In this document: positions 54,152-56,524 of the stretch, in pieces
How positions within the stretch are numbered: position 1 is the stretch's first letter
How the letters are laid out: every line of letters begins with the position of its first letter
Assembly (NCBI GenBank): GCA_947581895.1
Contig: CANPWE010000005.1
Coordinates: 1 to 59,911, forward strand
DNA length: 59,911 nt
Direction: 5' to 3'
From: an uncultured Clostridia bacterium
Lineage (GTDB): Bacteria > Bacillota > Clostridia > TANB77 > CAG-508
Translations under genes and position numbers: made by a program
Notes under the pieces: generated by a model
Databases searched by the model: none
What the model was told of the DNA's origin: nothing
Seen by the model: the letters and a program-made list of their open reading frames with translations, nothing else

Positions 54152-56524
54152 ATGGATAAAGAAATTATAGATAAAATCTTTGGCGCTATAGAAAATGAAA
54201 ATTATGAATACTTATGTAATTTAGTAGATATAACACAACCTTTTGTAATAGAATATATGTATCAAATTGAAAAACATATATTTTCAAATATAATGAGAAA
54301 AATAGAAAAAGAAGGAGATTTCAACTATTTTTTAACAAAAAAATATACTAATATAGATACATTTTGTGATTTGATAGTATATTCAACAAATATTGAAGAA
54401 ATAAAGGCTTGTATAAATGAACGAATAGAATTAGGTTTAACTTCTTTAGATGTTAAAAGTTTAATATTAGCAACAAAAGATAAAGAATATATAAAACAAT
54501 GTATACAAAACAAAGACGAGTTAGGTTTTAATTCATATGATATTATTAACTTAATATTAGCAACAAAAGATAAAGATTATATAAAAGAATGCATAGATAA
54601 TAAAGATGAGTTAGGCTTAGGTTTTTATGATATTCAAGACTTAATATTGGCAACAGAAGATAAAGAATATATAAAAAAATATGTAAGAGAACTTATAATA
54701 GAACGTGATAGATTAAGTTGTAGTATCTATGGTAGTATTACATATGATATAGTTACATTAATATCAGCAACTAAAGATACGGAATATATAAAAAAATTTA
54801 TAGATAACAGAGATGAGTTTGATTTTGATTCTTATAATATAGTTACACTTATATCAGCAACTGAAGATAAAGAATACATAAAAAGTGTTATATCAAAACG
54901 AATGGAATTTGGACTTAATTCATATGATATTATTATATTGATATTAGCAACAAAAGATAGAGAATATATAAAAGAATGTATAGATAAAAGAGATGAATTA
55001 GGTTTAGATTTTGTTGATATTAAAGTATTAGAATTAGAAACAAAAGATAAAAAATATATAGAAAAATATATAAAAGAATATATGGCAAAAACAGAATCTA
55101 TATCATTAGACTCAGGTGAAATTGTAAGTTTGATATTAGCTACCAAAGATAAAGAATATATAAAAGAGTGTATATCTAAACAAAAGGAATTAGGCTTAAA
55201 TTGCAATCAAATTGTAAGTTTGATATTAGAAATCAATGATAAGGAATATATAAAAGAATGTATAGTTAAACAAAAAGAATTAGGCTTAGATTCTAGTAAA
55301 ATTGTAAGATTAATATCAAAAAGCAAAGATAAACAATATATAAAAGAATGTATAGATGATGAAAGTTTAAATTTAGATAAAAAAACTAAAACAAAATTAA
55401 CATTAATTTCTAATCCTGATGAAATTATAGAACAAATAAATATTAAAAAAAGTAATATTATAGATTTGCCAACTGATATGACAATAGGAATAGAAATTGA
55501 AAGTTTAGGAACAGAAAGTAGCTTTATAAGCGAAAATGGACATTATTTTTTAGAGAATTGGAAATGTATAAATGATAGAAGTATAAGTTCTAATAAAAGT
55601 AATGAAACTGGAATAGAAACAGTTTCTCCAGTTTTATCTGGTTCAAATGAGGATACAACAAAAGAAGTTGTTAAAACAGCTACATTACTAAAAATGTTAG
55701 GACAATATGCAAATGATACTTGTGGAGGTCATATACATATTGGTGCAGATTACTTAAAAAGTGTTGAAGCTTGGCAGAATTTAATTGAACTATGGTCAAA
55801 TACAGAAATGTTATTATATATAATAGGAAATGAAAAAGGATATATTCCAAGAACAGAAGTTATTCAATATGCACAGCCTATATCAAGAAGTATAGAAAAA
55901 GCTTTAAATACAGATAGTATAAATTTGGAAAATGAAACTGATTTACAACAATTTAAAGATACAATTTGCGAGTTTCAAGAAGATAGATATAAAGGAATAA
56001 ATTTCCAAAATCTAGTACCAGGTGGTAAAGGGACAATAGAATTTAGATTAGCAAATGGTACAGTTAATCCTGAAACATGGATAGAAAATATTAATTTATT
56101 TGGTGGGATTGTAAGAGCAGCACAGGAATTAGCTAATATACAATGTAAAGATATTAATGAAATAACAAAAGAAGAAAAATGTAAATTAAGGTCTTTTGAA
56201 AAAATAAAAAGTGAAGATTTAAGTGAAAGTGAAAAATTAGAATTATTGTTGTTTTTGGTTGTAAATGAATCTAATAGAAATATTTATAGAAAAAGATATA
56301 AAATTAATAGTAAATTACTAAATGAAGATCCACAATTAAAAGAAGTAATAAAAAAAAGAACAGCAAAACATAATATTAGAATTTCAAAAAATGAGATATT
56401 GAAACATTTTTTATTGGGAGAAGAAAGAATTACAGGACAAGAAATGGAAATAACAGAAAAAGTAAACTTATCTAAATTAAAAGAAAATATGCAATTAAAT
56501 TCTAAGCCAAAAAATTATAGATAG
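54152..56524 (+). CDS. 790 aa protein: N-terminal array of ~30 aa helical repeats fused to a C-terminal amidoligase (glutamine-synthetase-like) domain
   Basis: About 11 repeats of the form ELGLnsyDIvsLILATKDKEYIKECIdnkd. The C-terminal region (about 55478..56135) carries IGIEIESLG, GIETVSPVL, CGGHIHIG and GTIEFRLANGT, matching the putative amidoligase family as I recall it. Confidence 0.7.
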   Translation: MDKEIIDKIFGAIENENYEYLCNLVDITQPFVIEYMYQIEKHIFSNIMRKIEKEGDFNYFLTKKYTNIDTFCDLIVYSTNIEEIKACINERIELGLTSLDVKSLILATKDKEYIKQCIQNKDELGFNSYDIINLILATKDKDYIKECIDNKDELGLGFYDIQDLILATEDKEYIKKYVRELIIERDRLSCSIYGSITYDIVTLISATKDTEYIKKFIDNRDEFDFDSYNIVTLISATEDKEYIKSVISKRMEFGLNSYDIIILILATKDREYIKECIDKRDELGLDFVDIKVLELETKDKKYIEKYIKEYMAKTESISLDSGEIVSLILATKDKEYIKECISKQKELGLNCNQIVSLILEINDKEYIKECIVKQKELGLDSSKIVRLISKSKDKQYIKECIDDESLNLDKKTKTKLTLISNPDEIIEQINIKKSNIIDLPTDMTIGIEIESLGTESSFISENGHYFLENWKCINDRSISSNKSNETGIETVSPVLSGSNEDTTKEVVKTATLLKMLGQYANDTCGGHIHIGADYLKSVEAWQNLIELWSNTEMLLYIIGNEKGYIPRTEVIQYAQPISRSIEKALNTDSINLENETDLQQFKDTICEFQEDRYKGINFQNLVPGGKGTIEFRLANGTVNPETWIENINLFGGIVRAAQELANIQCKDINEITKEEKCKLRSFEKIKSEDLSESEKLELLLFLVVNESNRNIYRKRYKINSKLLNEDPQLKEVIKKRTAKHNIRISKNEILKHFLLGEERITGQEMEITEKVNLSKLKENMQLNSKPKNYR
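54395..55370 (+). repeat. About 11 tandem copies of a diverged ~90 bp coding repeat
   Basis: Recurrent ...ttaatattagcaacaaaagataaagaatatataaaagaatgtata... blocks seen at both DNA and protein level. Confidence 0.85.

Follow-up and report, generated by a model that had tools for sequence, protein, structure and literature searches.

A predicted amidoligase on a helical-repeat scaffold from an uncultured Clostridia bacterium, and the family to which it belongs

The amidoligase family PF12224 (Amidoligase_2) is widespread in phages, plasmids and conflict loci, and for its members the searchable literature yielded neither a characterised enzyme nor a demonstrated substrate. The family behind this Pfam entry is reportedly the glutamine synthetase (GS)-like 'putative amidoligase' family of Iyer, Abhiman, Burroughs and Aravind (2009), a work cited in PMC11318856 and PMC4431377. 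Here we describe a gene for a PF12224 protein in a stretch of 59,911 nucleotides (contig CANPWE010000005.1 of assembly GCA_947581895.1) from an uncultured Clostridia bacterium; this whole stretch was analysed and is referred to as the window. The gene lies at 54152-56524 on the plus strand, as a single uninterrupted open reading frame (ORF) of 790 codons and a stop. Judged from sequence, structural models and analogy, we hold with moderate confidence that it encodes a target-directed carboxylate-amine ligase, in which a repeat arm is joined to a GS-fold ligase, and that it comes from a polymorphic family of the conflict type; its function is predicted.

The protein shares with PF12224 the Pfam match, the fold of the phage amidoligases and Glu, His and Arg residues that are conserved along the strands of the core. 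Compared with other members, it adds an N-terminal domain, an array of 30-residue repeats and a helical tail of 140 residues, and its family has two partner genes of its own, c1 and c2. It is only ∼25% identical to the PF12224 members on viral contigs, and whereas PF12224 proteins occur on phages and plasmids, its family sits in cellular gut Firmicutes. The enzyme family is thus already known by prediction; both its architecture and its partners are new here.

Two other groups of described systems serve for comparison. PafA and Dop, the Pup ligase and depupylase, are GS-fold enzymes acting on proteins. They provide a working analogy for a ligase of the GS and glutamate-cysteine ligase (GCL) superfamily that acts on a macromolecular target and not on a metabolite, but the window protein has no detectable sequence match to them, no Pup-like gene was identified and the phylum is different. 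Polymorphic toxin systems and polyvalent proteins, reportedly the subject of Zhang et al. (2012) and Iyer et al. (2017), have in common with the window's family a constant N-terminus, swappable heads, linked small accessory genes, arrays of paralogues and a patchy distribution. Unlike polymorphic toxins, the family has no recognised trafficking domain, no linkage to secretion and no known immunity family; helicase heads occur in it, and the window copy has no candidate immunity gene.

The C-terminal ligase domain

That the protein ends in an amidoligase of GS-like fold had been proposed in a sequence-only reading of the window, and Pfam, AlphaFold and Foldseek agree on this point. The ligase core, assigned from the Pfam match, the conserved residues and the model, spans residues 436-650 (55457-56101, plus strand). 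PF12224 matches residues 466-649 with E = 5.7e-18 and 66.1 bits (cut-off 22), covering profile positions 40-240 of 245. An AlphaFold2 model of residues 430-790, made with 22 diverse homologues in the alignment, has a predicted local distance difference test score (pLDDT) of 89 and a predicted template-modelling score of 0.85. When structures in the PDB were searched with Foldseek, the top matches were to YbdK (1r8g, E = 3.7e-4, and 1tt4; probability 1.00), followed by GS (8fbp) and the GCLs 1v4g and 2gwc. These YbdK/GCS2, GS and GCL structures are the best structural matches to the catalytic core, but their sequence identity to it is ∼11% at a TM-score of ∼0.4, and the core of the window protein is smaller (∼215 residues). 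Among the predicted viral structures of BFVD, 54 matches were found at E ≤ 1e-3, most of them named 'amidoligase', the best at 2.4e-11. The protein does not belong to the GlnA-type GS: it has neither a Gln-synt match in Pfam or NCBIfam nor a GCS2 match in Pfam, it lacks the N-terminal beta-grasp domain of GS, and the structural match is limited to the core (TM-score ∼0.35, 12% identity).

The four motifs picked out in the sequence-only reading are all present, namely IGIEIESLG at residues 445-453, GIETVSPVL at 487-495, CGGHIHIG at 524-531 and GTIEFRLANGT at 627-637. We take CGGHIHIG to resemble the 'GSGxHxH' strand of GS and TIEFR its 'RxExR' strand, by resemblance and not by alignment. Two alignments, with 22 and 36 diverse homologues at 31-54% identity to the window protein, show nine invariant residues (E448, E450, E489, H527, H529, R567, E630, R632 and N635), all of which the window protein keeps. 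The proposed catalytic constellation of acidic, His and Arg residues therefore stands, with no inactivating change. As far as sequence and model tell, the C-terminal domain is a PF12224 domain of the GS/GCL-type fold with every family-invariant residue intact. By analogy with GS, GCL and YbdK, the ligase would first use ATP/Mg2+ to phosphorylate a carboxylate, to which an amine, e.g. an amino acid or a polyamine, would be attached in a second step, so that the window protein is predicted to form amide bonds in an ATP-dependent manner.

Beyond the Pfam match, a family-specific helical extension and a basic C-terminal tail occupy residues 651-790 (56102-56521, plus strand). The helical bundle (residues ∼651-735; helices from 640-664 to 727-735) is conserved and confidently modelled. 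The region as a whole carries a conserved IYxxRYxxNSxLL motif and has an isoelectric point (pI) of 9.5, and its last ∼45 residues are of low confidence, with pLDDT below 60 from about residue 746. The idea that the tail motif is common to scaffold proteins without an amidoligase was dropped, as profile searches gave no match at E ≤ 1. Searching PDB sequences with the complete protein returned nothing meaningful, and no model in NCBIfam, PADLOC or PHROGs matches the protein. The 'amidoligase-like' fimbrial modification enzyme CfmP of Klebsiella is irrelevant here, being an ATP-grasp protein, and in a paper on thymidine hypermodification amidoligase Pfam matches appear only as uncharacterised neighbours.

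The repeat array

In the full-length AlphaFold model (mean pLDDT 86.5), the N-terminal two-thirds of the protein is a novel alpha-solenoid. It begins with a helical domain (residues 1-81; 54152-54394, plus strand) with modelled helices at residues 3-14, 18-24, 33-54, 57-65 and 68-75, which has the family consensus IDxxF...IExGDYxYF and no Pfam match. The array proper (residues 82-435; 54395-55456, plus strand) contains ten canonical 30-residue units at residues 92-404, as anchored on the core LIxATxDxEYIK. Each unit is modelled as a helix hairpin of two ∼10-residue helices, mostly at pLDDT 85-95, and one degenerate unit caps the array on either side, at residues ∼68-89 and ∼410-426. This bears out the earlier count of ∼11 tandem repeats at residues ∼82-405, and the fusion of the ligase to a helical repeat scaffold, likewise proposed before, is seen in the full-length model. 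At the DNA level, Tandem Repeats Finder reports arrays with a period of 90 nucleotides at 54431-54680 and 54744-55357. The description of several copies as almost identical in their DNA was overstated: pairwise identity between units is 56-83% for the 90-nucleotide DNA units and 37-73% for the protein. In all other points the earlier observation was accurate.

The array resembles the solenoids of TPR, Sel1 and HEAT-like proteins in its stacked helix-turn-helix units, but differs from them in its 30-residue period and its signature LIxATxDxEYIKxCI. No Pfam family matches residues 1-440, and no known helical repeat family (TPR, Sel1, HEAT, ANK, DUF4116 and others) matches the repeat units by profile. 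The Pfam matches reported for the repeat region (MqsR_toxin, ExoX-like_C, NagJ_C and others) are spurious, being below threshold or without a passing stretch. DUF4116 does occur in a few relatives (P0075, P0096), where it lies N-terminal to the 30-residue repeats and not within them. Foldseek searches with the full-length model yield only generic TPR-like, designed helical-repeat and solenoid proteins.

What the repeats may do is suggested by a profile built from 1370 repeats of 238 proteins. Positions L2, L10, I11, T14, D16, Y19, I20, K21, C23 and I24 form a conserved core, while positions 3-9, 12, 13 and 17 are hypervariable (entropy above 3.2 bits). A fixed scaffold whose binding face varies would be expected to show such a pattern. 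With its conserved hydrophobic core and hypervariable face, the solenoid of ∼12 helix-hairpin repeats is most likely a recognition arm that would bind a macromolecular target or a partner. The solenoid would then bring the ligase to a specific target, and the target would receive an amide-linked adduct; in other words, the repeats are predicted to select what is modified. Binding of nucleic acids, as done by the repeats of TAL or mTERF proteins, was also considered. The acidic pI of the array (4.9) weighs weakly against it and makes protein the likelier ligand.

The number of repeats per protein ranges from 1 to 17 across the family, with a median of 5, so that the ten of the window protein fall in the upper tail. 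A change in this number was observed in contig L085, which comes from another sample and has no substitution relative to the window over ∼5.9 kb. The only difference is a single clean in-frame gap of 180 bp that corresponds to 54730-54909 of the window (plus strand), i.e. exactly two repeat units, precisely in register. The deletion junction has only ∼3 nucleotides of microhomology. A collapse by the assembler is an unlikely cause of the variant, because the junction shares so little sequence and the units are at most 76% identical, but the low coverage of L085 (2.9x) leaves it some probability. As a precise two-repeat change is seen on an otherwise identical background of ∼6 kb, we suggest that the recognition arm varies in length rapidly and in register.

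An antisense ORF of 124 codons (54832-55206, minus strand) lies wholly within the repeat array. It probably arises from the repetition in the coding strand and is not taken to be a gene.

Interchangeable heads and partner genes in the family

A word-indexed search found 283 homologues of the window protein. The best 120 of them all combine an N-terminus of variable length with PF12224, and none has a name. Among the homologues the C-terminal module is constant at 300-350 residues, and the N-terminal part varies from 130 to 640. An exhaustive HMMER search with the scaffold only (residues 1-440) gave 215 representative clusters at E ≤ 1e-3 among 1.84 billion. In a genome scan with one genome per species, relatives were found at 78 loci, nearly all in metagenome-assembled genomes of uncultured gut Firmicutes, labelled as uncultured Clostridia, Clostridiales, Bacilli, Eubacteriales, Erysipelotrichaceae, Tenericutes or Clostridium sp. 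CAG:571; by label, one Fusobacterium sp. and one Bacteroidaceae are the exceptions. Where the gut source is named, it is rabbit, human (Hadza, Nepal), goat, sheep or deer. The viral contigs of IMG/VR hold no close relatives, only generic PF12224 proteins at ∼25% identity, and a phage origin of the gene was rejected on this ground. The family is real, rare and ecologically narrow. It is seemingly confined to uncultured low-GC gut Clostridia and Bacilli of humans and herbivores, and may reflect a mechanism of conflict or interaction specific to a poorly known part of the microbiome.

Genes of the family are found in varied places. Their neighbours change between loci and are for the most part housekeeping genes, such as those for SecA, ClpB, LeuS, AdhE, AddB, RuvAB and ribosomal proteins, as well as FtsK, UvrB and RsmD, identified by eye. 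Links to mobile elements are seen at some loci (TraG/VirD4 in L001, serine recombinases in L003). Two or three paralogues stand in tandem in L016, L033, L045, L066, L078, L081, L082 and L087 (137-4781). One relative, P0105 (1371 residues), continues after its repeats and amidoligase for ∼790 residues with, by eye, a HELLH (HExxH-like) motif and C-terminal repeats of leucine-rich type; Pfam reports PF12224 only.

In one sub-clade (L003, L004 and L005, at about 2441-9785, and also L018, L025 and L058), the repeat-amidoligase gene is the last of a cluster that encodes ThiF, a 188-residue and an 82-residue protein, an aminotransferase, an ATP-grasp protein and a pyruvate-kinase-like protein, without c1 or c2. 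This cluster may be a mobile island of biosynthetic or conjugation type.

The ThiF cluster bears on the question of whether the protein is a biosynthetic or housekeeping ligase, which would produce or modify some small compound or part of the cell (e.g. a natural product resembling a peptide, or an envelope precursor), with the repeats as a scaffold for oligomerisation or docking. Besides this operon, such a role would fit the GS-fold relatives YbdK, GS and GCL, which act on small molecules, and the position of the window gene after one for a family-2 glycosyltransferase (GT2). However, the ThiF operon in L003 is mobile cargo, since serine recombinases flank it, and a gap of 205 nucleotides and an apparent terminator hairpin, judged by eye, separate the GT2 gene from the window gene. 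Patchy distribution, expansion of paralogues, repeat numbers from 1 to 17 and swapping of heads are also unexpected of a pathway enzyme. We consider a biosynthetic role quite improbable, and see a hint of it only in the sub-clade with the ThiF cluster.

That the scaffold is not tied to the amidoligase is seen from 120 newly retrieved scaffold representatives, of which 83 have the amidoligase module and 37 lack it. The latter include some fragments as well as ∼20 long proteins (∼760-1360 residues) with a different C-terminal region. This region, or head, is an HD domain in P0182, a DEAD/Helicase_C pair in P0151 and a transglutaminase core in P0192. A further head, for which Pfam has no match, is common to P0133 (L103, 762-4673), P0137, P0141 and P0211 and contains the conserved stretch DWNRPxIxSQHFCASY[IV]RNDM. 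The remaining long proteins have heads of unknown kind. Very small ORFs (43-66 codons) were noted 3' of some non-amidoligase heads.

The partner genes c1 (∼150 residues) and c2 (∼135 residues) are two small families that recurrently adjoin the scaffold-amidoligase gene, here called c0. They emerged when ORFs were called in all loci and clustered, and were counted in a six-frame census of 88 loci with hidden Markov models. Both are present in 34 loci, one of them in 33 and neither in 21, so that at least one partner occurs in 67 of the 88. The gene orders c0-c2-c1, c2-c0-c1 and c1-c0-c2 were seen, and in loci with independent gene calls the spacing to the main gene is -4 to ∼60 nucleotides. Neither c1 nor c2 has a match in Pfam, NCBIfam, PADLOC, PHROGs or the sequences of the PDB; for c2 the best match among immunity families is DUF4284/Imm22, which is not significant (E = 0.017).

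The two partners appear to follow different parts of the main protein. Beside an amidoligase-head protein, c2 was found in 47 of the 88 loci. Four non-amidoligase scaffolds were examined for partners, and c1 stands beside three of them, one with a helicase head and two with unknown heads (L099, 3719-4111; L103, 326-745; L104, 8740-9186; E = 3e-19 to 4e-41), but c2 beside none. With four contexts, this pairing of c1 to the scaffold and of c2 to the amidoligase head is a lead and not a rule.

The window copy differs in this respect. By a six-frame search of its full 59.9 kb, the window lacks both c1 and c2 (best E 0.15 and 0.36). The closest relatives of the gene with usable context, L086 (48% identity) and L011 (42%), do have the partners, which makes the window copy an orphan, though an intact one. 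The sequence-only reading had called for a survey of linkage among homologues; a conserved linkage exists for the family, in the 67 loci with c1 or c2, while the window's own neighbours are unlinked. It had also remarked that the usual partners of such amidoligases do not adjoin the gene, and indeed no NTN-amidotransferase or AIG2/GGCT Pfam family occurs among the window neighbours, nor did any turn up where the surroundings of homologues were annotated. Such partners are a matter of context and do not define PF12224. The most informative facts are that c1 and c2 are missing and that the heads are modular, and both lie beyond what the window alone shows.

Loss of c1 and c2 could mean that the window copy is a non-functional relic, i.e. 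an inactive leftover in a decaying region. The absence of both genes from the window would be in keeping with this, as would the truncated nuclease gene and the possibly damaged SpoIIID-like ORF downstream and the existence of a variant with an in-frame deletion of repeats. On the other hand, the deletion is precisely in register, the gene has a good ribosome-binding site, and both partners are likewise absent in the 21 loci mentioned above. A relic is very unlikely, because a frame of 2373 nucleotides has stayed fully open at a G+C content of ∼25%, where stop codons arise easily, and every family-invariant residue is kept.

We infer that the family serves some form of biological conflict. It has the hallmarks of a conflict module, namely interchangeable heads, a variable number of repeats, tandem paralogues and coupled small partners, and it is a cassette inserted between unrelated housekeeping genes. 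One form that this could take is a secreted polymorphic toxin, with the N-terminal domain and the repeats serving for trafficking or as a stalk, c1 as chaperone or adaptor, the amidoligase as the toxin acting on a target in a rival or host, and c2 as the immunity protein. The constant N-terminal region with interchangeable C-terminal heads, the way in which c1 tracks the scaffold and c2 only the amidoligase head, and the common tandem paralogues and variable insertion sites would all fit. There is also a conceptual precedent, as a published analysis predicts ATP-grasp amidoligase-type enzymes as components of polymorphic-toxin loci (PMC4431377). Against a toxin, no signal peptide and no LXG, WXG, RHS, PT-TG or other known trafficking domain was found, and the neighbourhoods contain no secretion-system genes, the FtsK-like neighbour looking like a housekeeping gene by eye. 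The ligase is not at the end of the protein but is followed by a tail of 140 residues, helicase heads are atypical, and the 16 cysteines hint, as a weak argument, at a cytoplasmic protein. Moreover, an intact copy that lacks c2, as in the window, would harm its own cell were c2 an immunity protein that it could not do without. We regard a secreted toxin as unlikely.

An alternative inside the cell is defence against phages or plasmids, in which the hypervariable solenoid would sense a protein of the invader, the head would be an effector that modifies or depletes an essential molecule, and c1 and c2 would be regulators. Defence proteins, too, typically join exchangeable effector heads to one repeat region that resembles a sensor, and HD, helicase and protease heads are common in defence. 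The small cassettes at varied sites and the rapid variation in repeat number point the same way, and in the window the gene is followed, after 2.3 kb, by what remains of a nuclease from a candidate family of PADLOC. However, PADLOC (PADLOC-DB v2) matches neither the protein nor c1 or c2, the neighbourhoods are housekeeping and not defence islands, the protein has no NTPase switch domain, and the hosts, being uncultured, offer no experimental system. The region had been thought to look like a variable or defence island; PADLOC finds no system in the window, only the nuclease remnant, and the upstream flank is housekeeping, so that a defence island is not shown. We give defence a low probability. 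Between the two, the helicase heads suggest defence or polyvalent proteins rather than a secreted toxin, and the head-specific small partner suggests a toxin with its immunity protein.

Several observations weigh against the target-directed ligase of a conflict-type family that we favour. The window copy lacks both partner genes, and may act differently, need partners encoded elsewhere or be heading for loss. The two-repeat variant is known from a single contig of low coverage (2.9x). Neither the protein nor its two partner families are matched by a model of PADLOC, PHROG or NCBIfam, and no member of PF12224 or of the sub-family described here has a demonstrated substrate in the searchable literature. 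A DEAD-helicase head is unusual for a toxin, and the sub-clade operon with ThiF, ATP-grasp and aminotransferase genes looks biosynthetic. Finally, the protein shows neither a signal for secretion nor a transmembrane segment and the neighbourhoods show no secretion-system gene, so that the conflict role is argued only from architecture and from considerations of a population-genetic style.

A more specific form of the target-directed ligase can be put forward tentatively. The N-terminal domain, the repeats and c1 might be the chassis of an undescribed polymorphic effector/immunity system of uncultured gut Firmicutes, which carries swappable enzyme payloads. In the commonest version, a GS-fold ligase would covalently tag the protein or other macromolecule bound by the hypervariable face, and c2 would be the dedicated inhibitor or immunity factor. 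If true, this would give a PF12224 amidoligase its first biological role and substrate class, and would be a new example of protein-directed GS-fold ligation beyond pupylation. There is a substantial chance that the arrangement of scaffold, c1 and head is a system so far undescribed. We would like to add that the family is an informative handle on PF12224, as its ligase is tied to a probable recognition arm, c2 is specific to the head and c1 to the scaffold, and the scaffold is reused with HD, helicase and transglutaminase domains. The recognition arm, the two partners and the reused scaffold lead to testable predictions on the target and the control of the enzyme.

The gene and its surroundings in the window

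Upstream of the gene are the ordinary chromosomal genes rpsO, pnp and that for the GT2 glycosyltransferase. Just 3' of the latter, an AT-rich inverted repeat (AAAGAAGTAATT / AATTACTTCTTT) followed by a run of T at about 54000-54034 (plus strand) looks terminator-like by eye; a terminator scan did not call this hairpin, which has too few G-C pairs. Given the hairpin, as judged by eye, and the T-run after the GT2 gene, we suggest that the amidoligase gene starts its own transcription unit. The sequence GGAGAG at 54137-54142 (plus strand), 9 nucleotides 5' of the ATG, reads as a ribosome-binding site, and the protein is probably expressed. It has a pI of 5.0 and no transmembrane or signal-like segment (the maximal Kyte-Doolittle value over 19 residues is 1.21), which is consistent with a soluble, cytoplasmic protein.

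Two genes downstream, already noted in the sequence-only reading, are present, but neither a conserved linkage nor a tight operon was found. The first, an ORF of ∼301-306 codons without matches, follows the amidoligase gene after 307-322 nucleotides, and the second, after a further gap of 110 nucleotides, encodes a DUF6557 protein of 236 residues; DUF6557 yields nothing in the searchable literature. Because no homologues of the two were found in the other related loci examined, except in L085, which is the same DNA, they are not counted in the system. That they might be divergent forms of c1 and c2 was considered and rejected, as all hhalign probabilities were below 1%.

Further downstream, the decayed nuclease gene that had been suspected is a remnant of 116 residues at 58853-59203 (plus strand), a YhcG-like PD-(D/E)xK protein matching DUF1016 and PADLOC PDC-S02, with a possible upstream piece at 58761-58856. 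It spans only profile positions ∼87-191 of 355, and no C-terminal nuclease domain follows it. At 59427-59630 (plus strand), the first ∼40 residues of a 67-residue ORF resemble, by eye, the helix-turn-helix of SpoIIID (…FGVSKSTVH…); towards the C-terminus the resemblance is lost, and a different frame carries on as a second short ORF. The 67-residue ORF is possibly frameshifted or truncated.

Apart from its tRNAs, the window has no Rfam match. The tRNAs are a lone tRNA-Glu at 1821-1895 and a cluster of tRNA-Val, tRNA-Asp and tRNA-Phe at 41202-41507.

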